From a virus: DNA of 64,000 bases. The stretch covers positions 47,406-111,405 of the IMG/VR virus record IMGVR_UViG_3300012352_000355. One strand, 5' to 3'. Below are positions 8,434 through 38,000 of this stretch, piece after piece; the first letter of the stretch is position 1; each line of letters opens with the position of its first letter. Under the pieces are notes generated by a model. The model ran no database searches. It saw only the letters and a program-made list of their open reading frames with translations, and was not told the origin of the DNA. Position numbers and translations under genes: made by a program.

Positions 8434-11400
8434 ATGCAAAACAAAATCAATCAGAACACGGCAGGTTTAAACCTTGATTCGGTTAATTACCAGATCAAGG
8501 AAAACATGATTACGTATGCCTTGAATGCAAACGTGCAGTCTCATGATGGTAACTCAACCACATATACTAACGAGCCTTCAAACCAAATCTGTTATGATTT
8601 TAGTTTAACTTATCCTGGATTTAAAATACTTAATGTTTTAAGTATTACAGAACAGTCTAAGTTAGTTGTTTTCTTAGCTCACCCTGATGGCAGATCTCTT
8701 ATTGGAGAGTTAACTAATCTAAATAAAGATTGTACTACACTAACAGAAACAGAAACAGATTGTGGTTGTATCTCTGGAACAGTAGTAACTAACGTAGTGA
8801 ATAGTGCAACAGGTTGCTGCACTTTTACCCCATTGATTGTAGATAACTGTTGTGATTGTACAGATTGCTACACATACTCTGCTCAATCAATAAACAATAC
8901 TCCTTACTCTATAACCTACGTAAACTGTAACGGAGTAGAAGTAACAGATACTTTTCCTTCAGGTATAGGAACATTCACTGCTAGAAAGAACAAATATATT
9001 CTTCCTTCAGATGTTGAGATACTTGATAGCAATCTAGAGTCTCAAGGACAGTGTGTTCCTAAAACTTCTGACTGCTGTCTAAAATTGTCTACGGATTTTC
9101 CTGTGTACGCTGAGTACAGAATTGATAACTGTGAAACAAAGGTCTACTTTATTGCAAGAAATATACAACCTCGTTACTTCTCTTTAGAAGAACCTTTGGG
9201 TCGTGATCAATGTGGAGATGCCCTTGACTGTCTTACAGACGCTTGTGAGCGCTTAAAACTATTCCCTGACTTCTGTCAAGCAGATATCTATCCAACAGCA
9301 ATTGACTCAGGTGGAAGACTTAAGGGAGGTGTATACTCTTTCTCAGTGGCTTATGCAGATGAGAATGGAAAAGAACTTACAGATTACGTAGACTTCAGTA
9401 ATCCTATTGCAATCTTTGAGAGAGCTATTACTGAACAAACAGAGTACGAAACCTCTAAGTCTATCAGAGTATCAATAGACCACAGTACTACAATCTTTGA
9501 TTACTTTAATCTAGTTGTAGCAGAAAATATAAATGAAGTAACTACATACCAACTGGTAGGTACTTACAGAGTAAATCAATCTACCTATAGAGACTCTTTA
9601 GTTTATACTGGAGACTATTCTTCTACTTTCTCTTCTATTGTTCCTCTCATTCGCAGTCCTCACTACGAGACAGCAGAGATTATTGAGAAACAGAATGACA
9701 TCTTGATGTTAGCTGATTTGGTAGAGACTCCTAAGTATAACTTTCAATTACTTGCTAATAAGATTAAACTTCGCTGGGAAACTGTAAAGATGCCAGTTGA
9801 TAATAAGTTTGATTACTCTAATCCAGAAATCGCTTACTTCTTTAGAACTTATCAGAGGGATGAAGTTTATCCTTTTGGTATTAAGTTTAAACTAAAGAAC
9901 GGTAAGTATACAGATGTATTTCATATTCCAGGTAGAGAAGTATTTCCAAACTCAGATGAGAGATCACTTATCTATCATGATAGTAACCCAGATGCATTTG
10001 GTACAGTTAACGATTGTATAGTTACAGACAGAGAAGAGAAATGGAAAGTATACAACACAGCTACAACTGGTATTACTCCTCCTAACAATACTCCTTCTTT
10101 ACAAGAAGCTCAATACTCTTGTAAGATTACAGTAGAAACTGGTGGAGAATTTGCTTACTGGGAATCTACTGAAACTTATCCTTGTTATGAAGAAGTATGG
10201 GGAGCCTTAGCAGGTCAACCTATTCGTCACCACAAGTTTCCAGAAAATGCTAAGTCACATATCCACGCAGATGGGGATGACTTTATCTATCCTATCGGAG
10301 TACGTCTCTGGAGTGAAAGTTTGTTTGCATCTATCCTAGATACAGAAACAGTTTACGATCCTTTGAATACTTACGGTAATCATCAGATACCTGTTAAAGA
10401 GTTGATCTGTGGTTATGAGTTAGTAAGAGGTAATCGTGTAAACAATAAGTCAGTAGTAGCTAAAGGACTTGTTTATGATGTAGGATCTTTCAAAGATGTT
10501 AAGTCAGGTAAAGAATTCTACTACCCTAACTATCCTTACAACTCTTTGGAGGATGACGCTTACATCAAATCTACTCCAGACTGGTATAACAAAGCTGATA
10601 GAGGTATTGATGATCCTGACTATGGAATGGCTTTGCATAAGGGATTCAATGTTATTGGTTCTCGTTACACATTTCACTCACCTGATACACACTTCCAGTA
10701 TCCTAAGATTGGTACAGAACTTAAACTAGAAACTGTAGAGTATGGTAAAGTACAGGGTAAGTTTATTCCTGTATTAGATCATCCACAGTATAAGTTTTTG
10801 ACAACTGCAGACTATGCGGTTACTGCAGTATTAGCAGATGCTTTATCTTTAGCTTTTGAATCAGAACTTACAACTACTCCTACTCCAGGAGCTGCAACTA
10901 GGTGGAAAGCAGATGCCCTAGCTATACTTACAAATAACCAGATATTTATAGATCTACTTGAAAAGTTAATTCCTAACACAAACTTTGCTTATCAGTTTAA
11001 TTCAGTAGGAGAATACAAAAGATTCCTTCCTATTACAACTATAGGCAATAGAAGAAGATTCTTAGATATTGGTCTATACGCTAATGACAAGATTGTAGAA
11101 CTGAACGATGACAAACCTCTTCACAACAGACTAAGAGAAACTTCAGTTTATCTCAAGACTAGTGGATCATTCTCTACAGAGTATGCTAGTATTGTAGATA
11201 ATAGTCGTTACACAATAGGACAAAAGAACCTTCAAGATAATCCAGAACAAATTGTTGAGAGTGACACAAGGGCATACTACGCTTCTATTAAAAGAAACTT
11301 CCCTAATCAGTATGGACAGATTGAAAATATTAAATACGTTTCTACTGGTTACTCCTGTTCTGTCTACACAGATATTACTGGTACTTTGCAAATTAAGACT

Positions 11401-13485
11401 AAGTACTATCCTGCATTTGGTGGAGACACATTCATTAACAAGTTTGCACTTAAGCGTAAGCATTCTTTCTTTACTCGTAACCTTGCTAATCTTCCTGCTA
11501 AAGTAGACAATGTTCCTTTTGATTATTGGTTGTATCCTAACTTAGGTTATCCTACGTACTACATTGGAGAGTCTCCTGCTACTATTGATAATGCAGCTTA
11601 CACAGCATTACTTGCAGGACTATCTGCAGGGATTGCAGCAGCATTATTAGCATCCGCTGCAGGAGCTCCTTCTGGGGTTGCACTAAACTCTGCAATTTCT
11701 GGATCACTAGCTGCAGCTTACTCCTTGTTTGTTAAAAAGAATAACCTAGATGCAGATCCTAACTCTTTCTTCTACCAAAAAGGTTTCTTCTATACAGCTT
11801 CTTACGGTATTCCTGTATTCTATGTAGAGTCTGATATCAACGTAGACCTACGCCATGGAAGAAATGACTTAGAAGAGAATTTCTATCCTAACGTAGGAGA
11901 TGGTATTCCAGATGAGTGGTTGCATGAAGTTAATGTACCTATTAAGTTTGACAACTTCTATAGTTACAATGCTACTTATTCTGCACAGAACTTAAGTCCT
12001 AATCTTCCCTACAGATTAAAGTATCCTTCACTAGAGTGTTTGTCTATCCATAACAACAGAGTAATTTACTCAGATCCTGCAAACTCTTCTAACTATCTCT
12101 CTGATGCTTGGAGAGTATTCCGTCCAGGAAACTTCTATGACTTTCCTAAGCAAGGTGGTCGCTTAATTGATCTGAATGCGGGAGAAAACGAAAGAGTGTA
12201 TGCTAGATTTGAGAATACAACTAAAGTATACAACTCTCGTATCACCTTAAGTACTACTTCTCCTTATCAATTAGAAATAGGTAATGCAGAGATGTTCAAA
12301 CAAAAACCTGTAGATCTTGCTAAAACAGATCTGGGTTACATAGGAACTCAACACAAAGCTTACGTTAAGTGTGAGTATGGAACATTCTGGGTAGACGCTA
12401 AACGTGGTCACATCTATCAGATCACAGGAGACGGCTTCAACGAAATTAAAACAGAAAATAACTTTAACTGGTTTAAGCAAAATCTTCCTTTCCAAATCCT
12501 AAAAGATATTCCAAATGCAGACATAGACAATCCACCGATTGGCTTAGGCATTGTTATGGGATGGGATGAAAGATACGAGAGGGTATTTATTACTAAGTTA
12601 GACTACAGAGTTAAACCTGAATTTAGAGCAGGCAATCCTTCAGTAGTTAAATACATTACAGATACTTCTGATACTAACTATAGAAGATATGTACTAGAGA
12701 GTGGAAGTACTCAAGTAGAGATTACTTTTGGTGATCCTGCATTTTTTGAGAATAAGTCTTGGACAGTTGCTTACTCACCCAAACTTAAAAACTTTATTTC
12801 TTTCTACTCATTCCTTCCAAACTTCTTTGTTCCTATGTTGGGTAACTTCCAGACAGTTATCAATACTTCTGCAGGAGCATCTACTTGGAACCATAATCTT
12901 TCTATCTTTACTTACCAGACTTACTACAACAAACTTTATCCTTACATCATAGAGTATAACGTAAACTCATTCCCTCAAGTATCTACTGTTAACTCTGTTA
13001 CTTTGATGCAAGACATCCAAGAGTATTATTCTGACTACGAGTACTACTCTTTGTCTACTGCAAATAAAAAGAACTTAGCAAACTTTACTAAGGCTATTAT
13101 CTATAACAAAGAACAGTCATCTGGTATCATTAAGTTGATTCCTGAAGAGTTTGGTAACACAAGACAAAAGATTACCTATCCTAGAATGACTACAACGGGC
13201 ATAGAAGCGCTTATCTCTCGCAGAGAACACTTGTATACCTTTAACGGATTTTGGAACGTTGCAGCGCAAGGAAATGGGCAACCACTTTGGTCTACTCAAT
13301 GGAGTGACTTGATTACTCAGTATCCAATAGATAAGATACCGAACACTAAGAGTGTGAGACCTGTATCTGTATCTTACCAGAAGTCTAAGATTAAATCAGA
13401 CTTTGCTAAAGTAAGATTGATTCAAGATCAGTACTCTAGATTTAAGTTTATTAATACAATCCAAATAACTCAAACCAACCCATAA
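8434..13485 (+). CDS. Tail stabilisation/muzzle protein
   Basis: 1683 aa with G-LN-D start, YQRDEVYPFGI, YWESTETYP, IRHHKFP, GGDTFI and SFYSFLP motifs. Confidence 0.8.
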   Translation: MQNKINQNTAGLNLDSVNYQIKENMITYALNANVQSHDGNSTTYTNEPSNQICYDFSLTYPGFKILNVLSITEQSKLVVFLAHPDGRSLIGELTNLNKDCTTLTETETDCGCISGTVVTNVVNSATGCCTFTPLIVDNCCDCTDCYTYSAQSINNTPYSITYVNCNGVEVTDTFPSGIGTFTARKNKYILPSDVEILDSNLESQGQCVPKTSDCCLKLSTDFPVYAEYRIDNCETKVYFIARNIQPRYFSLEEPLGRDQCGDALDCLTDACERLKLFPDFCQADIYPTAIDSGGRLKGGVYSFSVAYADENGKELTDYVDFSNPIAIFERAITEQTEYETSKSIRVSIDHSTTIFDYFNLVVAENINEVTTYQLVGTYRVNQSTYRDSLVYTGDYSSTFSSIVPLIRSPHYETAEIIEKQNDILMLADLVETPKYNFQLLANKIKLRWETVKMPVDNKFDYSNPEIAYFFRTYQRDEVYPFGIKFKLKNGKYTDVFHIPGREVFPNSDERSLIYHDSNPDAFGTVNDCIVTDREEKWKVYNTATTGITPPNNTPSLQEAQYSCKITVETGGEFAYWESTETYPCYEEVWGALAGQPIRHHKFPENAKSHIHADGDDFIYPIGVRLWSESLFASILDTETVYDPLNTYGNHQIPVKELICGYELVRGNRVNNKSVVAKGLVYDVGSFKDVKSGKEFYYPNYPYNSLEDDAYIKSTPDWYNKADRGIDDPDYGMALHKGFNVIGSRYTFHSPDTHFQYPKIGTELKLETVEYGKVQGKFIPVLDHPQYKFLTTADYAVTAVLADALSLAFESELTTTPTPGAATRWKADALAILTNNQIFIDLLEKLIPNTNFAYQFNSVGEYKRFLPITTIGNRRRFLDIGLYANDKIVELNDDKPLHNRLRETSVYLKTSGSFSTEYASIVDNSRYTIGQKNLQDNPEQIVESDTRAYYASIKRNFPNQYGQIENIKYVSTGYSCSVYTDITGTLQIKTKYYPAFGGDTFINKFALKRKHSFFTRNLANLPAKVDNVPFDYWLYPNLGYPTYYIGESPATIDNAAYTALLAGLSAGIAAALLASAAGAPSGVALNSAISGSLAAAYSLFVKKNNLDADPNSFFYQKGFFYTASYGIPVFYVESDINVDLRHGRNDLEENFYPNVGDGIPDEWLHEVNVPIKFDNFYSYNATYSAQNLSPNLPYRLKYPSLECLSIHNNRVIYSDPANSSNYLSDAWRVFRPGNFYDFPKQGGRLIDLNAGENERVYARFENTTKVYNSRITLSTTSPYQLEIGNAEMFKQKPVDLAKTDLGYIGTQHKAYVKCEYGTFWVDAKRGHIYQITGDGFNEIKTENNFNWFKQNLPFQILKDIPNADIDNPPIGLGIVMGWDERYERVFITKLDYRVKPEFRAGNPSVVKYITDTSDTNYRRYVLESGSTQVEITFGDPAFFENKSWTVAYSPKLKNFISFYSFLPNFFVPMLGNFQTVINTSAGASTWNHNLSIFTYQTYYNKLYPYIIEYNVNSFPQVSTVNSVTLMQDIQEYYSDYEYYSLSTANKKNLANFTKAIIYNKEQSSGIIKLIPEEFGNTRQKITYPRMTTTGIEALISRREHLYTFNGFWNVAAQGNGQPLWSTQWSDLITQYPIDKIPNTKSVRPVSVSYQKSKIKSDFAKVRLIQDQYSRFKFINTIQITQTNP

Positions 13486-13489
13486 TACC

Positions 13490-13870
13490 ATGAAAGAAAA
13501 AGAACTTTTCACTACAGTCAAACCCGAGATAGTAATTGGACAGTTGTTCCAATCTCGTGACATCATCCACATCGCACACTTGCAGACAACTTCTTTTAGT
13601 GAGCACAAAGCACTAGATGGCTACTACACTGAGATTATTGACCTAATTGATGATATCATAGAGTCTTACTTCGGTACAATAGGTAAAAGACTTAACTTTA
13701 AGATTCCTGCATCTGAGTACATGAATGCAAGAACTCACTTGATCTACATGAAAGACTACATGATGAAGCATCGTGGAGTATTCGGTATGGAGAACACTCA
13801 CTTACAAAACTCAATTGATGAGGTAATTAGTTTGATCACTAGTACCTTATATCAACTTACTCTAACTTAA
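13490..13870 (+). CDS. Ferritin/Dps-like four-helix protein (DUF5856-type)
   Basis: HIAHLQTTSFSEHKALDGYY...DDIIESYFG...YQLTL pattern. Confidence 0.7.
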   Translation: MKEKELFTTVKPEIVIGQLFQSRDIIHIAHLQTTSFSEHKALDGYYTEIIDLIDDIIESYFGTIGKRLNFKIPASEYMNARTHLIYMKDYMMKHRGVFGMENTHLQNSIDEVISLITSTLYQLTLT

Positions 13871-13885
13871 ACTAAATAAAACTAT

Positions 13886-14818
13886 ATGAATCGCTTAAAG
13901 AATTCTTACTCAACTTGCATGAGTTGCGGTGGTAAGAAAATGAAATCAGGAGGTAAATGGATTCAGTCTGCTATTAAGAAGCCAGGCTCTTTCACAGCAC
14001 AAGCTAAAAAAGCTGGAATGTCTGTACCTGCTTTCCGTGATAAAGTACTAAGTAATAAAGGCGCTTACTCTTCTACTACAGTAAAGAGAGCTAACTTGGC
14101 TAAGACTCTTTCTAAGATGCGTAAGGGGGAAGATGGTATGATTACACGTAAGGGAGTAAAAGATGTAATAAAATATTCTTCACTTGTAGAACCTAGAGGT
14201 ATTACTAGCGAATCTTCTATGGGCATGCCTGCTACCCCTACTCCTATTGAAAGTCCTGCAAACTGGTACAACGAGTCTACTTGGGATACTGCACAAACAG
14301 AAAATGCTGCTCGTTCTGCAGTTAATAGTCCAGCAGCATCTGCCAAAGGTCCTCTTGCTAAAGGTGGTTCTGAGAAAGTAAGAGCTTATCAAGAAATGCT
14401 TCGTAGCAAAGGTTATGATATTGCAGCTGATGGTGCTTGGGGTCCCAAGACACAAGAGGCTTATGAGACTTATATTAAATCTAAAACTGCAGCTGTTACT
14501 AATCCTCCAGCAAATAAGACTACTAGTACTTCTTCTTCACAGACTTGGAACTACACTCCAGAGCAATGGGATAAGTCTATGGCAGAGAATAAAGCAAGAC
14601 CAGCTGTTAATAGTGTAATGGCTACAGCAGACAACATGAAAAAGACCCCTATTACAACCAAAGAAGTTCTTAAGACTCCAGAGCCTATTCAGGTTACTCA
14701 AGCTGTGAATAATGTGAGCAAACTCAAAAAGGCTAAGAGTAAAGTAAGTTCTGCAGAAGCACTCATACGTAGAAAAATTGCTAAAATGAATTCTGGCAAG
14801 TCTATATACGGAGATTAA
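13886..14818 (+). CDS. Basic modular protein with a peptidoglycan-binding-like domain
   Basis: N-terminal basic module KWIQSAIKKPG...KRANLAKTL; internal VRAYQEMLRSKGY...ADGAWGPKT fits PG_binding_1. Confidence 0.6.
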   Translation: MNRLKNSYSTCMSCGGKKMKSGGKWIQSAIKKPGSFTAQAKKAGMSVPAFRDKVLSNKGAYSSTTVKRANLAKTLSKMRKGEDGMITRKGVKDVIKYSSLVEPRGITSESSMGMPATPTPIESPANWYNESTWDTAQTENAARSAVNSPAASAKGPLAKGGSEKVRAYQEMLRSKGYDIAADGAWGPKTQEAYETYIKSKTAAVTNPPANKTTSTSSSQTWNYTPEQWDKSMAENKARPAVNSVMATADNMKKTPITTKEVLKTPEPIQVTQAVNNVSKLKKAKSKVSSAEALIRRKIAKMNSGKSIYGD

Positions 14819-14820
14819 TT

Positions 14821-15504
14821 ATGTTTGTTCCAGGAGTAAATGGTTCTGTAATTCCTAGTGCACCCTCAGGTTCAAGACTTAAGGGTGCATATAGGAATTC
14901 TAAAAAGCGTAAGATGCCTAATGGTGGAATAGAAGTTGCCTTAGATGCAGCTTCTTTTATCCCACCACCAGTAGGTACAGTAGCTTCACTTCTTGGTGCA
15001 GGTTTAAATGCTTATCAAGGGGATTATACGGGAATGAGTTTAGATTTAGCTAGTGCTGCTAGTGGTGGGGCATCTAAGTGGTTTGGTGCAGCTGCAGATG
15101 CTGCAAAGATGGCTAACTCTGGAAAACTTGCTTCAAATATGGCATCTAAAGCTAAAACATTTCAAACTCTTTCTAATCCTGTAATATCTAAAAGTGCATC
15201 TGCGGGAAGAGATTACTTAGGCACAGTAGGGTCTTCTTCATATAATAATACTATGAGAGTTCCTCAAAGAGATAATGCTCAAGTACAATTTAGACCTAAT
15301 CCTAACTTACGTAGAATGGAAGAAGGCGGAGAAGTAGAGGATGACGATAAGGAAATGGTTAATGGAGTAGCAAGTATCTTACGCAGAGTAAAAGATAAGA
15401 AGAACAGATTACAACTAGCTAATCAACTCGCTAAACAGTTTAACAGAGAAAAGGTAAAATATGATTTACCTTCATTCCTAGCTAAATCTAAAGTAAAAAA
15501 ATGA
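14821..15504 (+). CDS. Modular protein with a hydrophobic Gly/Ala-rich segment
   Basis: 227 aa; MPNGG and MEEGG motifs bracket LDAASFIPPPVGTVASLLGAGLNAYQGDY. Confidence 0.6.
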   Translation: MFVPGVNGSVIPSAPSGSRLKGAYRNSKKRKMPNGGIEVALDAASFIPPPVGTVASLLGAGLNAYQGDYTGMSLDLASAASGGASKWFGAAADAAKMANSGKLASNMASKAKTFQTLSNPVISKSASAGRDYLGTVGSSSYNNTMRVPQRDNAQVQFRPNPNLRRMEEGGEVEDDDKEMVNGVASILRRVKDKKNRLQLANQLAKQFNREKVKYDLPSFLAKSKVKK

Positions 15505-16073
15505 AACAGATGATAAAACGTAAAGACGGATCTTACTCACAAAGAGGATTGTGGGATAACATCCGTGCTAAAAGAGGTTCTGGAAAGAAACCTACTCCAG
15601 AGATGCTTAAGCAAGAACGTAAGATTAAACGTAACATGGCTGAAGGCGGTAAAATGCCTACCAGTGTTGCTAAGGCTAGATTTGTAGCAGCTAACAAAGG
15701 AAATGTATCTGAGGCTAGACAAGACGCTTCTAAATACGGATACAAGTTTATGGTTGGTGGTAGACTTAAAGCAGCTTATATGGCTAAGGGTGGAACTATT
15801 GCTAAGACAACTAAAGGCCCAGGTGCTAACTATCGTCCTACCAAGCAAGGTGCTGGTATGACTAAGAAGGGAGTTATGGCTTATCGTAGAGCTAACCCAG
15901 GTTCTAAGTTAAGCACTGCTGTTACAGGTAAGGTAAAGCCAGGTAGCAAAGCAGCTGGTCGTAGAAAGTCCTACTGTGCTCGTTCATTAGGTCAATTGCG
16001 TAGATCCTCACAAGCTACACAGAATGATCCTAATAGCAGAATCAGACAAGCACGTAGGCGTTGGAAGTGTTAA
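15501..16073 (+). CDS. Highly basic modular protein (C-terminal DUF6321-like module)
   Basis: K/R-rich; GLWDNIRAKR module and GMTKKGV..YRRANPGSKL...RRKSYCARS...DPNSR...RRWKC module; ATGA overlap with the previous gene. Confidence 0.65.
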   Translation: MKQMIKRKDGSYSQRGLWDNIRAKRGSGKKPTPEMLKQERKIKRNMAEGGKMPTSVAKARFVAANKGNVSEARQDASKYGYKFMVGGRLKAAYMAKGGTIAKTTKGPGANYRPTKQGAGMTKKGVMAYRRANPGSKLSTAVTGKVKPGSKAAGRRKSYCARSLGQLRRSSQATQNDPNSRIRQARRRWKC

Positions 16074-16094
16074 ACTAAAACTAAAACTAAATAT

Positions 16095-16253
16095 ATGGCA
16101 ACTAAAGCATCTAAAACTAAATCAACCTCTACAGCTTCTAAGTTCAAAGTTAAACCTAAGATCAGAAGAAAGGGAGTTGTAGCAAAGACTAAAGCTTCAA
16201 AGTTAAAGTCTAGCAAAAATTATCTTAAAAAAAGCAGAGGACAAGGGAGTTAA
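16095..16253 (+). CDS. 52-aa histone/protamine-like basic peptide (absent from the ORF track)
   Basis: MATKASKTKSTSTASKFKVKPKIRRKGVVAKTKASKLKSSKNYLKKSRGQGS*; AAACTAAA leader, ends in a terminator, no acidic residues. Confidence 0.75.
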   Translation: MATKASKTKSTSTASKFKVKPKIRRKGVVAKTKASKLKSSKNYLKKSRGQGS

Positions 16254-16272
16254 TTCTCCCTTGCTTTTTTTT
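16242..16272 (+). terminator. Intrinsic terminator
   Basis: CAAGGGAG-TTAATT-CTCCCTTG followed by C and T8. Confidence 0.85.
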
Positions 16273-16290
16273 ATTAATCTTGTATATTTG
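16261..16290 (+). promoter_or_regulatory. Bacteroidota-type promoter for the cargo genes
   Basis: TTG(16261-63)-N19-TATATTTG(16283-90). Confidence 0.75.
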
Positions 16291-16353
16291 TATAACTAGC
16301 TTATTCTCAAGCAGTTATTAACTTTCTATGTTAATAACATAAATAATTAAAAC

Positions 16354-18825
16354 ATGTTAAGATACTCACTGTATAAGAAATTTGTAAACGGGGGTGGAGT
16401 AGATCCTGAGGTTGAAAAAATCCAACCAAAAGGAATTACTGCTCCTATACCTACTATGGAAGAGTACCTGTCTAACAATCAGGAATTTAGCAATACAAGT
16501 TCTTATCAAGATGCCTTTCAAATTCCTAACTTATCTCTAACAGGATTTAAGACCTCAGACTCTCCTGAAGGTACGGTAACTGATAAGCAAAAATCATATA
16601 AGCCAGGTACATTTAAAGATGAAGGTAGCTTGCCTACTTTTACTTCTATACTATCTCCGCTTAATCCTTTTGACGTAAATCAAAAAACTCCTGAAGTAGA
16701 ACAAGGTCCTTTGTCTGAAGAAGAAGCTACGATGAGAGGTATCCAAACTTCTCCTATTACTTCCACTCCAAAAGAGCAACCTAGTTTCTGGCAACAGAAT
16801 AGTTCTGCATTAGCAACTTTAGGTTTATTGGGAGTTGACTCAGGGTTTGGATATAATGAAGATCTAAAGAATCAGCAAAAATTAAACGAGTCAATACAAC
16901 AAAGAAAATCTAAGCCTGAGTACTCCTACAATTATATGTATGGTCCCACAACAGGTGGAGGTACAGAATTTCAACCTACAATAAAAGCAGAAATGGGTGC
17001 AAAAATAAACAAACGTTATGCTAGTGAAGGCATGAACGATGTAGAAATTGAAGGTGGAGAATTTATCCAACTTCCTAATCTAGATACTGAAATGGCTGAA
17101 GGGCCTTCTCACGAGAATGGAGGTATTCCTACAAACTTGCCTAATGAGACTCGTGTCTATTCTAACAATTTAAAGCCAGAAGGATCTAAGAAAACTTTTG
17201 CACAGATCGCTAAAAACTACGATATCACTTCATATAAGAAAACTTTAGATAATCCCTTTGCTAAACAAGTAGATAAGGATACTGCAAGTATAATGATGAA
17301 GAGAAACCAGAAAATTCTGGATGATTTGTTTGAAGATCAACAGATGATGAATGGTAACTCTAATGGAGAACTAGAAGCAAAGAGAGGAGCTAGTATTAAC
17401 AACCCAGGATTTAAAGCTCTTCCAGGTTACGTACAAGCTAAGATTACTGCTAACATGGCAGAGGGAGCTAAATATAAAATTCCACAGGGAGTAACAGTTA
17501 AGCAAGCAGGTGATCCTTCGATTCAGGTAGGTGATTACGTTATGGGCGCTAATAATAAAGTCCAGAAAGTCACTGCTGCAAACAAGAAGACTACTTTAGG
17601 AGAATACAATAAAGGCTATGATGATTTGTCTTCTACGTTAAGTAGACCTGAATTTGACAAAGTTAAGGAGGCTATGTACACTAAGTACAAAGAAAAGAAT
17701 CCTAGTACTACTGTATCCAAAGATCAGTTTATTAAAAACTTCATGGATGCTCAGAAGCAGATCTATACTATTAGGGAAGCTGCTAAAAATAATCCAAACC
17801 TTGATATTAAGACTGAAGACTTAGACAGAACTGCTGGTGGTATGAAGAATAAGGTTTATAATCAAATTGCAAAGCAATTAGGTTTTAATCCTTTGACTGA
17901 AGATCAAACAAAAATGTTTCAACAGTCTTACTTGGATCTTGCAGATCTCCAGAATAATCCTGAATTTAAAGAAACTCTGTCTGACTTTGATCTGACTCCT
18001 ACAGGAATGACAGATGACGTATATCTAGGAAAACCAATTTCAAAAGCAGATGCAATCTTCGGTAACACTACTATAGGACAAGCAGTAAGAGCAAAAAGTA
18101 GAAGTGACGCTCAGGACTATACTTACGAAGATGTTCCCCTAGAGACAAAAGACATTGAGTTTAATCAACCAGGAACTGCACCAAGGGGAACTTATACTCC
18201 TGGAAAGTTTCCTTTGTATCAAGCTATTCCTGAAGCAATGGGACTTGCTCAATCACAACAAATTTATCCTTATGCTATTCCTGAAATAGATGCCCCTTAT
18301 CTTCGTCCTCAAACTTTGAATATTCAAAGTGAGTTACAAAACATAGATAACATGGGTACAGCAGCTATCCGATCTGGTGCAGATCCTTTAGATGTTTATA
18401 TTGCAGGAATTGATGCTAAACAAAAAGCTTTTCAAACTAAACAAAACTATGATGCAGAAGGTAGGTCTAGAGCAGATATAGCAAATGCACAGGCTTCCTT
18501 TAGTGCAGATCAGTTCAATGCTCAAGCATTTGATCGTGTATACAATAACCTAGTAGGTCAAGCAAGAGATGCTCAGTCTGCAGAAAAACAAGCATCTATT
18601 GCAAACATGATAACTAAGAAAGGTTTGTTTGATCAGAGTGAATCTAGAAAAGCTGCATTTATTAATAACCTTGTTCCTTCATTTAACACTACCTCAAAGG
18701 GTCAGATGGATGTGGCAGAAGAACAGTTGCCATTTTATTTTAATGCTTTCAACAACTATGTAGATGCTGAAGACACTAAAAAGAAAACAGCTAAAAAAGG
18801 AATGTATAAAAAACCTAAATATTAA
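16354..18825 (+). CDS. Virion cargo/core protein
   Basis: 823 aa, no Cys seen; VEIEGGE...GPSHENGG motif of crAss-like internal proteins; position before the large cargo genes. Confidence 0.6.
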   Translation: MLRYSLYKKFVNGGGVDPEVEKIQPKGITAPIPTMEEYLSNNQEFSNTSSYQDAFQIPNLSLTGFKTSDSPEGTVTDKQKSYKPGTFKDEGSLPTFTSILSPLNPFDVNQKTPEVEQGPLSEEEATMRGIQTSPITSTPKEQPSFWQQNSSALATLGLLGVDSGFGYNEDLKNQQKLNESIQQRKSKPEYSYNYMYGPTTGGGTEFQPTIKAEMGAKINKRYASEGMNDVEIEGGEFIQLPNLDTEMAEGPSHENGGIPTNLPNETRVYSNNLKPEGSKKTFAQIAKNYDITSYKKTLDNPFAKQVDKDTASIMMKRNQKILDDLFEDQQMMNGNSNGELEAKRGASINNPGFKALPGYVQAKITANMAEGAKYKIPQGVTVKQAGDPSIQVGDYVMGANNKVQKVTAANKKTTLGEYNKGYDDLSSTLSRPEFDKVKEAMYTKYKEKNPSTTVSKDQFIKNFMDAQKQIYTIREAAKNNPNLDIKTEDLDRTAGGMKNKVYNQIAKQLGFNPLTEDQTKMFQQSYLDLADLQNNPEFKETLSDFDLTPTGMTDDVYLGKPISKADAIFGNTTIGQAVRAKSRSDAQDYTYEDVPLETKDIEFNQPGTAPRGTYTPGKFPLYQAIPEAMGLAQSQQIYPYAIPEIDAPYLRPQTLNIQSELQNIDNMGTAAIRSGADPLDVYIAGIDAKQKAFQTKQNYDAEGRSRADIANAQASFSADQFNAQAFDRVYNNLVGQARDAQSAEKQASIANMITKKGLFDQSESRKAAFINNLVPSFNTTSKGQMDVAEEQLPFYFNAFNNYVDAEDTKKKTAKKGMYKKPKY

Positions 18826-26613: not shown

Positions 26614-29600
26614 ATGATTTGTCCAAATTTAAGTGATAATAAAGTACGTGCGGAGTTCACAAACCTTACTAATCTTGTAGGAGAAGACTTCGCTTACTTT
26701 GTATGGAATAGGAATGGTGGCTATCCTCTAGACAAGAAGGTAGTTACAGTAAAGGGGAAAGAAACAGTAATTGATAATCCTTTATACAATCATTTCTTAG
26801 GCTCTTACAATAACGTAAAGCAAGCAACTCTTGCTACTAGTATTTATTACAGTAAGAAGTTACAGAAGAGTAATCCTGGATTTGATAATCTTCCTATACA
26901 AGAACAGGCAAACATTATCCATGACTTTGTACAAGAGAATGAAACTTTAGAAAAAGCTTCTGAAAGAGTAATGAGATTCATTGCTCAAGGATTTAAAGCA
27001 GAACGTGTATTAGATGAATCTATTAGAAGAGTAGCCTTTGACGAAGCACGTAAGATAGCTAACGGAAGACAATTACTTGACTCTTATGTTTGGTTTAAGA
27101 CTTCGCCTCTTTCTTTGTTTGTAGATTTTGCAAACATGCAGAACAAGGAGGAAAGTTCTTTTGCTACTTGGACTAAGTCAGCAATTACTTTATACAAAGG
27201 ATCTGATTACTCAGACCTTTATCACGAAGGTTGGCACGAATTTACACAGCGATTCATGACTAAGGAACAAAGAATTGCTTTGTACCAGTCAGTTAAATCA
27301 AGACCATCTACTGCTCTTATTAATGGTGTTCAAGTTCCTTACTATGCTTTGACTAGTCGTCAAATAGAAGAAGTACTTGCAGAAGAGTTTAGGTCTTTTT
27401 CTTTGAATAAGTCTAATCCTGAAGTAGTTGTTCCTAGAATAGAAGCTCCTGTAAGAAACTTGTTTCAAAAGATCTGGGATTTCTTAACAAGTATATTTAA
27501 TGCTTCACCTCAAGAGATTGCTTCTAGACCTGCAGAAGAAGTACAAGACGGTATAACTGCTTTGTTTGAAAAACTCTACGCAGGTAAAATATATGAGTAC
27601 ACGCCTAGTGTCACTAACATTAGTGAGAAAGTATTAAATAGAAACAAATCTTTTCAGATTAACTATGTAGCTAAAGACGGAAGAACAATTCCATTTGAGT
27701 ATAATGCTTTAGAAGCTGCAGAGATCTTTAGTGCTATTGACTTCTTCCTAAGTAAGGCAATGGATGACTTTAAGACAAGTGATGGTACTAAGATTAAGTT
27801 AGAAATGTCTTTCTTGTTGAACAAAGATCTTAAGCAAGTATACTTGCCTCAACTATATGAAAGTGCTAGAAACTCTATGTTGCAGTATATCAGTGCATTA
27901 GAGGAAGAAGCAACTACTGCTGACGAGGCTACTGCAGAAGTACTTAAGCTACGTGTTAAAAACTTAAAAGGATTAGTAGTAAGAACTGCAGCAAACGATG
28001 GTTGGGCTACTGTAGTAGAGAATCATCAGAGAGCATCTAAGGGTGGAGTATTTTACTTAGAAGAGAATAAGAAGTCTTACGATGTAGACAACCGAATAGA
28101 TGATCAAGATGAATCAGAGTTAAGGAGGGACAGTAGAAGTTTTGCTAACGCAGAAGACGTAGACCCTATGTCTCTAGCTTCTCCTGAGATTCTCCAGTTA
28201 ATTAAGATTCTTCCTGGAACATACTATAACTCTTTAGGAGAAATGGTTACTGCTACAGGTCCTTCATTTGGATTACCTCAGTCAGGTGATTTCTTAAGAA
28301 ATAAAAACTTAGTCTTAAGTAAAGTAAGTGGGTCAATTTCTTACGAAGAGGCTATACAAAGATTAGAGAATACATTAGATATTGCTCCTCAGTTAAGACA
28401 ATTAATTGATAGACTTCCCCCTACTGATACTTCTTTAAGTCTTTCTCAGCTCGCACTTAAATCTCAGTTTATGCAGTTTGCTGCAATGCCTACGGTATAT
28501 CCTTACGAGATCAAATCTTTGGTGCAAAATGAATTGTCTGCTGTAACTAAGAAGAAAGAAAAACGTCTGGAAACAAAAGCATTCTTAAACAATACTCTTT
28601 CTCAAGACAAACTAATAGAGTTCTTTGATCAAGACTTTGTAAGTAATAGACTACGTAAGTATAGATTAATAGATCCTAAAGAAATAGATCTAGCAGTTTA
28701 TGATAGGGCTAGTGTACTATCCGACTATAGAGCTTACACAGAGAATGGATTCACTTCTGATCAAGTTGCTTTTGAATTCTTAAATGATGCCTTTGGTATC
28801 AACTTAATTGCAGACAAGAATCCTAACTTATTGTTTAATAAGCGTGGAGAATTACAGTTAGGAGTTAATCCTATCTTTACTACTACAAACCTAAGAAACC
28901 TTGTCAAGATAGCTAACAATGCTTTGTTTAAGCTGAAGCTTCTTAGCCTTATAGATTCTTCTGGGGAAAATCTTAACACCCCTACCATCTCTTATAATCC
29001 ACTACTTGCTCTTTCTTCTGATATATCTAAACAGTTGAAAGAACAGATTAAAGAACTTAAGTCGGGAGAGAAGAACAAAGTAATTAAAGAGTACTTTGAA
29101 AAACATTTTAAGGCAGCTACTCTCGACAATGAAAGAACTTCTGCTTTTTCTACTATAGAAAAACTTTATAATATCTCTAACTCTGCTTCTTACTTAAACC
29201 CAGAAGGAAACTTAGAGTACGCAGTAAGAGAGTGGAATCACTTGTTAGACTCAGCATCTAAGATTAATAATGTAAAAAACATCTACGAACTAGAAGGACA
29301 CTTAAACCCAGAGTCTAATAACTTCCTTGAGTATAGTTTAGTTATGAATGCTATGTTCCGTAAAGACGATGGAACTAGAAGGACTACTAACTCAGGTGAA
29401 GGAGTATACTTAGAGGTTTTAAACATGTCAGGTTTTACTATTGGTAAAACTAGAGGAGATAAAACAACTAACTTATCTGGTGACGGAAAACTCTTACAAG
29501 ACTTCCTTTCCTTTATTCAAGACGCTACCATAGAAAACATGAGGGTAGGAGCAAAGTCTAGTTCTTTTGCTACACGTTTGTCTGGAAACAGAGGAGAAAG

Positions 29601-32600
29601 GGAATATTTTAAATATGATCAGTATCAGTTCAAGAATCAAGCTGTAGTATCTTCTGACTTTATCAGACAGATGCAGAACTACTTGAACTTTGAGGCTATG
29701 CGTATGTTTGACGACAGAGCTAAATCTACGAGAAAAGAAAAAGCTGGATCTGAGTTTATCATACTAGACACTATACTTCCACAAGACATTAAAGATAAAG
29801 TAAAGGAAGCAGTTAATGAGGCTCCTAACAAAGAGGCTCTTAAGTTGACTCTTAGGGGTATGTTTGGTTTGAGTGCTAATAGTCTCTATGGTCCATTTAA
29901 AGATGCTGTTACAGCATACTTTAAGAGTTCTGCTGATGTATTGAAAGTTTCTTTTAATGAAATCTTAAGTAAGGGAGAGTCTAAGAATCTTGCAAAAGAA
30001 TTTTATCGTATCCACAAAAAGCAAGATGGGACTGCCTATACACCAGAAGAGATAGATTCTGTTCTTCTTTACTTTACTACTAATTATTTTGCTCACCAAG
30101 TAGAAGTAATGCACTTGTTAATCGGTGATCCTTCTAATTATAAGATTAAAAATAATGAATGGAGAGAAGCATTCAAACGTCTTGGTCCTGCAATTTCTCC
30201 AGGTAAACAACCTAGATTAGACCTACAAGACACTAACTCTTGGAATACAGATCCATCTCTTAGTAGAGGACTTGAAGAAGTACAAAGAGGAAAAGGAAAA
30301 GGTAGACCCTATGATACTAATTTAAACTACGTACAGTATGAGGATATCAAAACCTTTGAGTATTTAGATGAAGTTGCTAAGTCTTCTATCAAAGAAAGTA
30401 TTAGACAAAACTATTTAGATGCTTTGATAGCAGCTAAGGGTCCTTTGAGTCCAGAGGAACTTGCAAGAGAGTCTGCTCAAATAGATTCAAATACTGATGC
30501 AGTACTAGTACAAGACGAAGAAGCGAATGCTCAGGCTTACGCAGGCTTAGACTTTATAAGATACTACTTAAATTCTATTGGAGAATGGCTTCCAGAACTA
30601 GAAGAAGCTTATAAACATGAGGTAAAGGTATTACAGGCAATTAAAAACTATAGACAATCTAACTCTACTGAAGATCTTGCTAAAGTAAAAGAGTTGGTTA
30701 GACAGAGTAATCTTGGAATACTGACTTCACTTAAACTAGGATACTATGGATCACCTACAGACTACAACAAGTACAATGTACTAGGTAAGTATTCTGTGTT
30801 CCCATTAAGTCCTTCTATGGTATTTGATACAGACTTAGAGAATCTTATGTTTGACTACCTAGACAAAGGAGTAGACATGTCTACTTTCTCTAGTGGTAAT
30901 AAGATGTCTCTTCCTGTAAACGAAATGGCTTTTTATAATTCTGTTGAGTTGAATGGTAAAAAGATTCCAGTACCTAATGCAAATGGAGCTTTAGAAGTAA
31001 CTAAGGTAGATCCTAATCTTATTGTAAGACTTCCAATAGACGGTCTCCGTAGACAACAGTATATTGCTCCTAAATTTAAGGGAGAAGCAACTTTGTCTAC
31101 TCAGATGGTTAAGTTAATTTTCTCTAACTTTTTTGTATCAGGTAAGATTAACCCTAAGTATGCACACATTCAAGATAAGATAGAAGCTTTACAAGAGGCG
31201 TTTATTAATAACATTAAAACTATTGTAGAGGTAGAGAAAGCAAAAATCTATTCTAAGATTGGAGCAACTGTTAACGCAGAAGGAAAATTAACTAGCATTA
31301 ACACAAAAGACTTTACTAACTGGTTACATAGAGAGTTTGATAAGAAGGAAGTACCTAGTTCTGTCTATGACTTTATTAGACCTTCTAATAACAATCAGTT
31401 TGTATTTTCATTGGATGCAGGAGTACAAAGATCTCTCATAGACCAAATCATCTCTAGTGCTTTGTCTAAGCGTGTATTGAAACCTAAGATGTTTGGTGAG
31501 GCTTATATTCAATTGGCTTCTTCAGGATTTAACAAACTAGGTACTCGTAAACAAAAGCCTACTGTTGATGAGATCAAGACTATATCAAAAGAATTCAATG
31601 TAAGCGGTTTAAGAGACTATCGCATTGAGGATGGTGTAACTCAACCTGCTGATGTTTTGATTCCATTTAACGCAAAGAAACATGCTCCCTTGCTTAATTT
31701 AGTTTGGAACGGAGAAGTTATCGGAACACTAGATAGACTTAATGACGCACTAGATGATCCTCAGTGGGTTAAGACACACTCAGCTAAGATAACTCTTGTA
31801 GGTGTACGTATTCCTGTACAAGGATTAAACTCTATGGAGTACTTTAGAGTACGTAGATTCTTAGCAACTGTAGGTGGTCCTGTAATGGTTGTACCTCCTT
31901 CAATCGTAACTAAGTCTGGATCTGACTTTGACATAGATAAATTGTTTATGTACGAGCCTGAACTTGATGAGAATGGAGAGTTAATAGTTAACGCTGAACT
32001 AGCAAGTGCAGAATACAGAGCTAAGATTATTGAAAACATCCTAGACAAAAACACTTACTTAAAAGGTAAGGCACTTTTTCTAGATAACTTGTTTGATTCA
32101 GAAAGCTTTAGGGAAGCAGGCTTAGTATCTAAAGAGATTGATTCTATTAAGAAAATGATCTCTGATCTAAAGGGTATTAAGACTTCTGGAGAAGAAGACG
32201 ACATAGCTTACTTTAAAGAGAACATAGGTCCTTTGAACATGAAGTTAGGTATTGCTATTGAAAGATTTAAAACTTTACGTAACCAAGATCCTAATGTTGT
32301 TCAGTTTCTAGAAAACTTAGCACAGTACAAAGAAGTTCTTTCTGAGATGGAAAACATTTCAGAGAAACTGATAAAGGGTTCAGCTTCTAACAATATGATC
32401 TCGGTAATATCTGGTGTATTGTCTGAAGCTTCTATTTACTCAGAGTTTACAAAACCCAACGTTAATAAGATTCTTCCTGAGATTGCTAGAGAGTATCAAG
32501 CACTGAAGGGCAGAGATAGTAAGATTGACTCTAGTGCAATGTTCTTGATTGAGACTTCAATAAGAATCTTTACAGAAAACAACTTGGGTAAGAAGTCTTT

Positions 32601-35036: not shown

Positions 35037-38000
35037 ATGCCAAACGGTTGTGTAATAAAATATCCTAATCCCGTAACTGGGATGAATCAAACTTCAGTAC
35101 TTGCCTACACTCTTTCTCAAATGGGGTACAGCACTGAAGAATCGATAAACTTAGTCAAAAGAGGCAGTACCTATTCTAAGAAGAATGGGTACAATGCCTG
35201 GCCTAAGCCTATTAACAGACCTGAAGCACGCTTTGGTAACTTTATAGAAATAGACTCAGACAATCTTGTAGCTAATTTAGGACTAGACTCTGTACTTAAA
35301 CCTTCACAGGTTAGTTATATGAGAGCTGCTCAAGATTTGTTTGAAGATGTACAGGTAAGGGTGGATGCTCCTATTAACTTAAAACTGTTAATGGAATTAG
35401 GAAACTATGTTAAGAAAGGAGGAGAAGCTTCTCTTAAGATAGAAGTAGTTAATCCTGAAGCACCATTAATACAAAGGATGTATAAAGTATATCCTGTTCC
35501 TGCTACTCCACTTAACCGTGAGTATTTATTTAGTTTCATTGAGACAGAAATATTTAGCAAGAACGTATCTATTGGAAAAGAAACAAGACTTGATTTCTTA
35601 AAGCCTTATATAGATTTCTCAGAGCCTGATATCTATGATACAATGGCTAAAATGCTAAACGATTCTCAGACACCTGCATACGAAAAGTATTTGATTAAGA
35701 AACTACTTCCTATGATGGACTTAGTTCCGAGTATTACTTTTGACTTCTTTACAGGCTCAGACATTCTTCAGGTAGAAAAAATTCCTGCAGGACAATACAA
35801 TAGAGAGTTTAATAATATAAAATTAAACGTATTTGGACTTAAGAATGGGGATATGTCTAGTGCTAGGAGACTTATTCTACACGAAGTACTTCACTCTGTA
35901 CTTTCTTCTGCTATTGACAATCCTATTAGCGAGGTAGACAAGAAACTAGTCAATTCTTTAAAGCCAGTATTAGCTTATTACAGGCAGAAATATTCTAGCG
36001 AAAAGTTTACAAATGAGTATTACGGTTTACAAGATTTACATGAGTTCGTATCTGAGTTCTTTACTAATCCTGAGTTTAGAGACTTACTAGAGTCTAACGA
36101 TAGTAACTGGTTCTTAAAGACAATTGATGCTATCTGGAAATTCTTTACAGGCAAACTTCTATTAAACAAGAACGTAAATACTGTAGAGAACATAGAACAA
36201 ATTCTAGAAGATATCTTTAACGATATTATATACTCTCAAGAAATCAATACGTCTCTTACCTATACTAATACTTCGAAGTTTGAATCTCCTCTAAGCTTCA
36301 ATCAAATGCTTGAGATAGATAAGTTTACTGAGAACAACTCTGAACTTTTATCTGAATTCTCGGCTAACCTAGATAGATTACTAGCAGAAGATAACTTGCT
36401 TAACTGGTCTAAGATTATAGATCAAGCAGAGTTCTTAGGAGTAAACGTAAATAGTGTACTAAGAACAAAAGATACTTTCGTAGAGATATCTCCTGCTGAA
36501 GCAAAAGAATCATTTAAATCTATGGTTACATTCTTCCACGAGACTGCTAAGTATCTAAGAAGTATACGTAACTCTCTTGATAAGTTAGCTGCAGATCCTA
36601 ACATAACAGCTGACCAAGTATTCAGACAGGCTTATCATGCTAAGGAACTAGGAGAACAATACATAAACTTTGTAGAGAAGTACAGAGAAGTAATGGGTAA
36701 CATAGGTATAGATACTATCCTAGGAATCCAACTTCTTAATATAAAAAGTACTGCAGACTCTTTAAAGGAAGCGTACTTGAATAATGCAACTGAGGCTTTG
36801 GCTATTAAATTAGCAGATGAGTTTGCTCCACAAACTAAAGATGCTCAGAAACGTATCCAAGAAAACATTGAAAGATTTAAAGTTAGTTTGGCGAGTGCAC
36901 AAAGCCTAGGTAACGCTAAACTTATAAAGCTTACTGAAGATAGAATCAAGAACGAAGAGGCTCGCTTACAGAGTCTTGCTACAAAGTCTAATATCATTAC
37001 TGCTCTTAAGGGACAGATTAAAGACATAGGTAACTTCTCTTTATTCTTAGAGTCAGCAGGTCTCTCAGGAAACGTAATTACTGGTACAGTAGGTGGTATG
37101 ATTGCTAACCAATTTGATTCTGCTAATGTTAAAGCACAATCTATGGAGGTTAAACTTAAAAGATTAGCTGATGAGTTACAAAACCACTTGAAGAGTAAGG
37201 GTGTAGGAGTAAACACTTCTTTTGATTTTGAGAATGTTTTCGGAAGATTTCTTAAGAAAACTGAAGTAGTTGAAATGAAGAATGGTAAGATTGCTAAGAG
37301 AGACACTCTAGTCCTACTTAGTGAGATGGATGAGGTTCGCTACAACAACGACTTGATTAAACTAAAACAAGAATTAAGAGATCTCAAACAAACTAAAGTA
37401 CAAGACTCTGCCGTAAAAGATCTTATTAAAGCTAAGGAAGCACAGATAAGAAACTTTAAACAACAGTACGAAGAACAGCCTTACCAAGAAGTCTATTACC
37501 AAATCCAGAATATGTTAAGCTCAGAAGCAAGAGAAGCTAGAGACTTAATACTTCAAGAGATGGATAAGATTCAAGTAGGTAGTTTGAATGAAGAGAACTC
37601 TGAAGAACAGTTAGATAAACTAGAAGATCTCAAAGAAGATTTAGATCGTTTGGAGTCTGATTACGATAAAAACAAAAACTTAAAAGACGAAGAAGGTTTA
37701 AGAATCGCAGCTAATATAAGAGAGTGGAAGAGGAGTAGGACTGCTGCTCAACTCTACACCTACAATATCACTAAAGAAAATCAGGAACTCTTTGATAGCC
37801 AACTTATTGCTAAGAAGAACGCTTACGATAAAGCTGTATCAGACTACGAACAGTCTTTGTCTGAGAAAGCAGATCCAGAAACTCTAGATTATAAAAAACA
37901 AACTGCAGAGTATTATAGAAAACAGTTTGAACTTTGGAAAGCTAACAACTGTGTTAGGAAGATTAGTCCAGAATTCTACAAAAATAGAAAGCAAATAACT

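Follow-up and report, generated by a model that had tools for sequence, protein, structure and literature searches.

In a marine crAss-like phage that has not been cultured, the products of four neighbouring genes are built like beads on a string, with small autonomous modules joined by a conserved junction. This junction reads [K/R/N/Y]-hydrophobic-x-x-G-G-x-hydrophobic, with M preferred over F, F over Y and Y over L at the first hydrophobic position. The genes are located in a window of 64,000 nucleotides (bases 47406–111405 of the 111,405-bp IMG/VR record IMGVR_UViG_3300012352_000355, which is estimated to be 94% complete), and coordinates given below are those of the window unless the genome or a locus is named. 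The junction motif is conserved, the proteins that carry it are modular and their modules are autonomous elsewhere; the junctions may, tentatively, be processing sites. The four genes and their motif copies are the following, the last gene being named after the position of the cargo protein C1 of phage crAss001 (lengths in amino acids, aa).

13886–14818, plus strand: gene 1, 310 aa; leader MNRLKNSYSTC-MSCGG-KK-MKSGG, KWIQSAIKKPG module at residues 24–80, variable tail
14821–15504, plus strand: gene 2, 227 aa; constant N-terminal leader at residues 1–36 (ending in KMPNGG), variable middle payload, constant C-module at residues 171–227 after RMEEGG
15501–16073, plus strand: gene 3, 190 aa; LWDNIR module, NMAEGG, KMPTSVAKARF module, KFMVGG, RLKAAY, YMAKGG, DUF6321
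16354–18825, plus strand: C1-position protein, 823 aa; N-terminus MLRYSLYKK-FVNGG, then AEMGA, EAKRGA-INNPGF mini-module-NMAEGA and C-terminal TAKKGMYKK
13919–13933 and 13940–13954, plus strand: motif copies MSCGG and MKSGG, gene 1
14914–14928, plus strand: motif copy MPNGG, gene 2
15316–15330, plus strand: motif copy MEEGG, gene 2, in front of the C-module
15636–15650, plus strand: motif copy MAEGG, gene 3
15747–15761, 15762–15779 and 15780–15794, plus strand: FMVGG, RLKAAY and MAKGG, gene 3, directly before DUF6321
16381–16395, plus strand: motif copy FVNGG, near the N-terminus of the 823-aa C1-like protein
17455–17469, plus strand: degenerate copy MAEGA, C1-like gene; NMADGG or NMKDGG in relatives

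Enrichment of the junction motif

The original prediction, made on the same DNA, had proposed that these genes consist of short modules separated by a recurring [MFA]xxG[GAM] motif, and every one of the copies that it had placed was recovered in its place. It had also proposed to compare the frequency of the motif with that in the rest of the proteome, and this comparison gave a clear enrichment. With the whole 111,405-bp genome as background (108 open reading frames, about 35,000 aa), six copies of M..GG fall in the genes at 13886–16073 (727 aa) and two in the remaining ~34,000 aa (Fisher p = 2e-9), and [MF]..GG is found eight times in the four genes versus seven times elsewhere in the genome (p = 7e-8). 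The loose pattern of the prediction is less specific, with 16 matches in the four genes and 44 elsewhere, yet it is enriched as well (p = 5e-9). Within-gene shuffles (20,000) gave a mean of 0.23 M..GG and 0.59 [MF]..GG and never reached the observed counts, and a chance origin of the motif is ruled out by the Fisher test together with these shuffles. In the three small genes, M or F is placed three residues ahead of the first Gly in 7 of the 9 GG dipeptides.

Neither the Gly codons nor the residues at the two x positions are the same at all sites; therefore, the repeat exists at the protein level and not at the DNA level, and a DNA-level repeat or recombination joint was rejected on these grounds. 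A Shine-Dalgarno-like GGAGG was discarded, as it is present at one site only, and so were internal translation starts, since M accounts for only 45% of the hydrophobic positions in a wider set of 780 contexts, with F, Y, L or W in its place in the others.

Conservation and consensus of the junction

A search with the gene 2 protein revealed 31 related viral loci (40–91% identity) in which the gene order is kept. The start of gene 1 in these loci is invariably M-x-RLK-x-x-Y-x-x-C-M-x-C-G-G-KK-MKSGG, and the relatives of this gene, which range from 80 to 357 aa, have the first 80 aa in common. KMPNGG follows a constant 31-residue leader in every gene 2 relative of the loci; in 20 aligned gene 2 homologs M32, P33 and G35 are invariant, and N34 and G36 are kept in at least 90%. 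The C-module of gene 2 is nearly always preceded by xxGG, usually with M, F or L ahead. The relatives of gene 3 hold one to three motif copies, and those of the C1-like gene show R/K-F-x-x-G-G at residue 10 and NM[AK]DGG near residue 365. Copies that are degenerate in the window appear in canonical form in relatives (NMAEGA as NMADGG or NMKDGG, AEMGA as VEMGG), and KGEDGM, EAK[NR]GA and TAKKGMYKK are kept as such.

A total of 122 non-identical GG contexts from the cargo genes define the consensus more closely: the position three before the first Gly is occupied by M, F or L in 64% of them, and the residue preceding this hydrophobic position is mostly K, R, N or Y. The wider set of 780 contexts, which are related by descent, extends the pattern to hydrophobic-[QKAE]-x-G-G-x-[LIVM]-P. 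Pro right after the GG is rarer than expected in this non-independent set (17 versus 41).

Module borders and module exchange

The motif copies had been predicted to fall at borders between unrelated modules, and homology breakpoints as well as module swaps bear this out. The alignment of 21 homologs of gene 3 showed that the LWDNIR module is replaced by a DUF5872-like module in some of them, that the KMPTSVAKARF module is present or absent and that DUF6321 is exchanged for DUF5754, while a motif copy persists at every joint. In the window, residues 118–188 of gene 3 correspond to DUF6321 (PF19846; 38.9 bits versus a gathering cut-off of 28.5, Pfam E = 1e-9), and the protein atlas places gene 3 in DUF6321 clusters and gave nothing further.

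The relatives of gene 2 (208 to 737 aa) keep the first 36 and the last ~58 residues around a middle of unrelated sequence whose length varies from 110 to over 600 residues and in which the extra blocks are each bounded by an MPNGG-type copy. When gene 2 was compared with 1.84 billion representative proteins, its three parts were found independently in 201 proteins, and the ends of 177 local alignments clustered at residues 25–42 and 151–174, which are the two motif sites. In most of 107 matches of the C-module in diverse proteins, xxGG is located about eight residues upstream. The variable tail of gene 1 contains a peptidoglycan-binding-like stretch, with weak PG_binding matches slightly below the Pfam cut-offs.

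Some of the gene 2 payloads, of about 125 aa (L024:5001–6017, L030:3231–5192 and L011:5001–6161), have residues in an alternating pattern and close with ...G-x-R-[FY]-x-K-x-F. In these features they resemble small outer-membrane β-barrels with a C-terminal Phe signal, and they might make a channel through the outer membrane of the host.

Free-standing counterparts of the modules

Separate-gene versions of four modules begin directly after the position of the GG. Thus, pelagiphage DUF6321 proteins start with M(A)IRKTTKG, which corresponds to GG-TIAKTTKG in the window, and phrog_20603 (59 residues) aligns from residue 24 of gene 1, which is the residue after KMKSGG. The KKPG module opens cr127_1 gp46 and, inside C1 of cr128_1, comes after YSKGG. 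The start of gene 2 (MFVPGVNGS) recurs as MQMGG-MSIPGVNG within or near the end of about 20 other proteins. What is a single fused gene in another phage exists as two adjacent genes in a pelagiphage-type contig. Fusion and fission at the motif, together with free-standing starts after the GG, therefore indicate that gene borders float relative to the modules, as would be expected if the borders of open reading frames do not define the final products.

The 56-residue KWIQSAIKKPG module of gene 1 (13886–14125, residues 25–80) has a very wide distribution that reaches Thermus phages. It is 52–55% identical to small hypothetical proteins of phages P23-45, P74-26 and G20c, and this match adjoins or overlaps with a gene that carries the annotation metal-dependent hydrolase or exonuclease.

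Distribution across phages

An alignment search with the C-module retrieved 80 loci. In 20 distant loci with a homolog of the muzzle, the tail protein encoded upstream of the motif genes, the C-module protein comes directly after the muzzle gene, contains 3 to 15 motif copies and can be as long as 1510 aa; cargo polyproteins of 957–1510 aa, with 10–15 copies, occur in other environmental crAss-like lineages. The modules of these polyproteins are DUF5872, DUF5754/Tlr6F, the KKPG module, the NPGF mini-module, the SET domain and zinc ribbons, besides outer-membrane-barrel-like segments and small HExxH...DP[TS]E modules. Alanine/glycine-rich segments are also found among the modules of relatives, and other polyproteins from the protein search hold SLT, lysozyme or YkuD cell-wall domains. 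The post-muzzle polyprotein of 1510 aa (L167:6797–11329) presents an N-terminal SET methyltransferase domain (Pfam E = 4e-7), a HExxH...DPTE module, DUF5872 in two stretches and DUF5754.

Loci that lack a muzzle homolog encode the C-module as a small protein of its own, with zero or at most one motif copy and often beside a DUF5856 gene; L190 and L191, which are motif-rich and have no muzzle match, are the exception. The gut phages cr128_1 and cr127_1 have a few motif copies, placed at module borders. No clear enrichment was seen in crAss001 gp45, where a hydrophobic residue occupies that position in 4 of 20 GG, about the chance level, and the three small genes are absent from crAss001 and phi14:2. 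A locus search of IMG/VR with polyprotein P0271 gave no match. The occurrence among crAss-like phages is patchy; therefore, the junction code is a feature of some Crassvirales lineages and not of all.

Structure prediction

AlphaFold2 (AF2) was run with family alignments, whose shallowness makes the models weak evidence. The predicted local distance difference test (pLDDT) averaged 48.6 in gene 2 and 56.6 in gene 3, a low confidence in both cases. Residues 46–119 of gene 3 stayed below 50, values of 80–90 were reached only in the C-terminal half of DUF6321, and the C-module of gene 2 was modeled as helical with moderate confidence (60–72). All motif sites of genes 2 and 3 are placed in stretches with pLDDT below 50 or at their edge. 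The predicted picture fits linkers in largely unstructured proteins.

Genomic position of the motif genes

The motif-bearing genes sit within a long plus-strand run of virion genes, with the terminase, portal and major capsid genes upstream in the genome and three giant genes (1992, 2791 and 1932 aa) downstream. Their closest neighbours are the following.

8434–13485, plus strand: muzzle-like tail protein, 1683 aa; marks the crAss-like virion module
13490–13870, plus strand: DUF5856 protein, 126 aa (Pfam DUF5856, E = 4e-21); kept in all related loci just upstream of the motif genes
16095–16253, plus strand: lysine-rich protein, 52 aa, 29% lysine; no motif copy

The muzzle-like protein matches phrog_37948 (E = 1e-119) and, by tblastn, structural proteins of the Cellulophaga phages phi4:1 and phi17:2 and of the gut phage csAssE-Sib. 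The 1932-aa protein matches the RNA-polymerase-associated protein g065 of phi14:2 (tblastn). The motif genes are located directly after the muzzle homolog and before the RNA-polymerase-associated giants, which is the position of the Crassvirales cargo block, and the gene order is the same as in crAss001 (muzzle gp44, cargo C1 gp45, C2 gp46, then the polymerase-associated giants). The 823-aa protein is assigned to the position of C1 by this synteny with gp45, and the blastp similarity between both (E = 0.028 over 84 residues) is not significant. The DUF5856 gene, the three small genes and the lysine-rich gene, between the muzzle and the 823-aa gene, are extra with respect to crAss001 and phi4:1. 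Judged by gene position, the genes between the muzzle and C1 are probably ejected cargo, and the four motif genes probably encode virion cargo that is packaged and ejected.

Several additional features were seen in this region. Genes 2 and 3 overlap by the ATGA at 15501–15504, in which stop and start share bases, suggesting translational coupling. The DUF5856 gene (PHROG label 'starvation-inducible regulator') adjoins the C-module gene even in large muzzle-less phage contigs; the pairing is found in L158–L160, L166 and L170 near 10400–10760, and this linkage is kept across phage types. The lysine-rich gene is kept as a gene of 50–59 aa between gene 3 and C1 in the relatives that reach that position, and its product is possibly a protamine-like DNA-binding protein. 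GIY-YIG-like homing endonuclease genes, recognised by eye only, are inserted among the cargo genes of relatives; the insertion separates gene 2 from gene 3 in L004:5686–6306 and the ~53-aa gene from C1 in L017:6367–7086, and the window has none. The giant of 2791 aa (26614–34989) carries a NADAR domain at its C-terminal end (residues 2635–2755, Pfam E = 3.5e-11).

Possible processing at the junctions

The reading that is put first here, tentatively and by a small margin, is that the junctions are processing sites at which a metalloprotease packaged along with the cargo would cut. The candidate is the zincin-like domain of the 1932-aa cargo protein, which would act either after the GG or just ahead of the hydrophobic residue and would free the modules while the head matures or once the cargo has been ejected into the host. 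This reading is favoured because the motif is enriched and conserved, its specific residues being kept over a wide divergence while the flanks vary, and because the free-standing counterparts start after the GG and the gene borders float. It is also favoured because Pro is depleted after the GG, conserved zincins are present in the cargo, motif-rich polyproteins elsewhere embed small HExxH...DP[TS]E modules and the motif sites fall in low-confidence AF2 stretches.

The recognisable protease candidates in the genome are HExxH sites in two of the cargo giants, one of which belongs to the domain mentioned above.

35685–36875, plus strand: zincin-like domain, residues 217–613 of the 1932-aa cargo protein, with HEVLH at 35880–35894; candidate processing enzyme

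This region lies in the part homologous to phi14:2 g065 (tblastn), and H282, E283 and H286 are invariant in 10 homologs, down to 39% identity. The domain matched no Pfam family at E < 0.1, save for one chance match, and the N-terminal parts of two giant proteins gave nothing significant against PDB sequences, the zincin matching no solved protease. The predicted complex of residues 200–640 plus Zn with residues 30–125 of gene 3 had a score of 0.00, which counts neither for nor against cutting. Drobysheva and colleagues (bioRxiv 10.1101/2020.03.07.982082) described in phi14:2 g065 a zincin-like protease domain with a possible role in activation of the virion polymerase or in peptidoglycan digestion, and they regarded the three giants, where fused, as 'likely cleaved'. 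Outside the window, at positions 30323–30793 of the genome (L035:2323–2793), a 156-aa protein with a lipoprotein-like signal (LILSIPC) and a HESLH sequence may be a small secreted zincin.

A number of observations weigh against cutting. No prohead protease was detected with PHROGs in the block formed by terminase, portal, a 377-aa protein and capsid, and six-frame searches of the genome gave no match to HK97-type PF04586, to ClpP PF00574, to adenain PF00770 and Ulp1 PF02902 (hence no clan CE protease) or to C39 PF03412. Cutting after Gly-Gly is not a known property of zincins. The cultured Cellulophaga phage phi14:2 shows no motif enrichment though a zincin is present, so that a strict link between zincin and motif was rejected and the link is therefore loose. 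The hydrophobic residue is often the last residue of the preceding module (...GTW-AEGG, ...NKTF-KEGG), and tandem motif copies separated by 1–8 residues make poor sense as cut sites. In T4-like cyanophages several of the same modules are fused without the motif; therefore, modules can work while fused. The crAss001 structure paper makes no mention of cargo processing, and a tblastn search of cultured phages with gene 2 and polyprotein P0225 returned nothing useful, with no cultured relative carrying the genes.

The original prediction had interpreted the motif as a maturation cleavage or packaging signal, with phage prohead proteases and the adenovirus protease as precedents. Its structural part stands, namely the unrelated short modules, the conserved motif at their borders and the crAss-like cargo block, and none of the known prohead or Gly-Gly-specific protease families came up in the genome searches, of which the T4-type one had a control that matched nothing. 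The proposed products, a set of small basic peptides inside the head, were described too narrowly: the modules of relatives include peptidoglycan enzymes, barrel-like segments and alanine/glycine-rich segments, a range that suggests a role in ejection.

A broader form of the processing reading, in which environmental crAss-like phages package self-processing cargo polyproteins whose virion zincin would release the modules at the junctions, is rather doubtful. The released modules would be those that exist as separate genes in other phages, giant viruses and polinton-like viruses (DUF6321, DUF5754/Tlr6F, DUF5872 and the KKPG module, among others).

Possibly uncut junctions and other explanations

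The evidence fits about equally an uncut hinge or docking element, a credible if somewhat less favoured explanation in which the cargo proteins stay intact. The junction would then be a flexible turn between modules, or it would bind to repeated sites in capsid, portal or tail barrel, and a single chain would occupy one station after another and leave in unfolded form, like a thread, at ejection. The crAss001 structure offers a precedent, with residues 214–245 of C1 in the tail barrel (residues 1–245 are proposed to fill it) and residues 425–552 on the portal, and its authors propose a partial unfolding of C1 on extrusion. The F..GG copies of this C1 at 260 and 559 adjoin the barrel and portal parts; however, this coincidence is anecdotal, given the chance-level frequency in gp45 described above. 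Tandem copies that lie so close together are compatible with multivalent binding or with a spacer of greater length, and the extended pattern, with hydrophobic residues flanking the GG and then Pro, resembles a turn-forming linear motif. Most of genes 2 and 3 is unstructured by AF2, no suitable protease family came out of the genome searches and the phi14:2 zincin occurs without the motif, all of which agree with junctions that stay uncut. On the other hand, ordinary linkers would not conserve a specific hydrophobic residue plus GG over such divergence, no binding partner was identified, and the modules work free-standing elsewhere.

Improbable, in comparison with both, is an N-terminal capsid-targeting signal of the kind found in T4 internal proteins, which would load the procapsid and whose later removal would be optional. 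The element RLKxAY...hydrophobic-xxGG common to genes 1–3 and the similar LRxxL[FY]..F..GG of C1 recall such a leader, as do the placement near the N-terminus or before the last module in four consecutive motif-bearing genes and the constant leader of gene 2 ahead of a variable payload. Most motif copies are nevertheless internal and lack RLKxAY, the element is located at residues 88–98 in gene 3, and the same mini-module is placed at the C-terminal end of proteins in other lineages.

An evolutionary scar, that is, a functionless linker inherited with copied modules and kept by descent, is very unlikely in spite of the rampant module shuffling. The x positions and codons vary while the hydrophobic residue and the GG persist, which indicates selection. 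Moreover, the motif flanks unrelated modules and is missing when these modules stand as separate genes or are fused in cyanophages, and the DNA in common is too short for homologous recombination.

Comparison with known systems

In adenovirus, adenain cuts precursor and core proteins at (M/I/L)-X-G-G↓X. Its substrates are alike in having a hydrophobic residue at a fixed distance before Gly-Gly in basic proteins that are packaged with DNA. However, the pattern here is hydrophobic-x-x-G-G, which would place the hydrophobic residue at P5 if the cut fell after the GG, whereas it is at P4 in adenain substrates; moreover, the host is bacterial, the six-frame search found no clan CE protease and cutting is here a proposal. 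The prohead protease sites of T4 gp21 and phiKZ gp175 end in Glu (L/I-x-E and S/A/G-x-E, respectively), and to our knowledge crAss-like phages have no recognised prohead protease. The T4 internal proteins and the inner-body proteins of phiKZ-like phages are similar in that they are packaged, ejected (here judged by position) and marked by short repeated signals. They differ in those Glu-ending sites, and the gp21 family (PF03420) had no match in the genome in a search whose own control matched nothing.

Among crAss-like phages, C1 of crAss001 (gp45) resembles the 823-aa protein in gene position, basic character, a largely unstructured chain and lysine-rich N- and C-terminal ends, although the similarity in sequence is the non-significant one given above. 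The gut relatives cr128_1 and cr127_1 have the KKPG module in common with gene 1, after YSKGG or at the N-terminus. The SLT, lysozyme and YkuD domains of relatives recall the transglycosylase of T7 gp16, one of the podovirus ejection proteins (T7 gp14-16, N4, P22), but no homology to these was shown and they do not have many small modules sharing a common junction. Double-glycine leaders of the C39 type likewise carry Gly-Gly after a short leader, where C39 peptidases cut, but they have another leader consensus, the genome has no C39 domain and the sites described here are internal and repeated.

The literature searched, on DUF6321, Crassvirales polyproteins and ejection-protein processing, contained no description of the motif. 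What is described here is a conserved junction signal, possibly for processing, in probably packaged viral proteins of a phage order that is both abundant and little understood. It bears on the way in which Crassvirales, which rank with the most abundant phages known, store and deliver several megadaltons of cargo protein. With a conserved code of this kind, proteins that otherwise resist annotation could be parsed into functional units and their mature products predicted, and it ties the widespread viral domains DUF6321, DUF5754/Tlr6F and DUF5872 to the presumed compartment of injected proteins. Should the junctions be cut, the conserved virion zincin would gain a substrate and a role; should they stay intact, they could be the docking or threading signal implied by the crAss001 structure. 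Self-processing of the cargo, if true, would be a phage counterpart of adenovirus core-protein maturation, with a new pair of protease and site.

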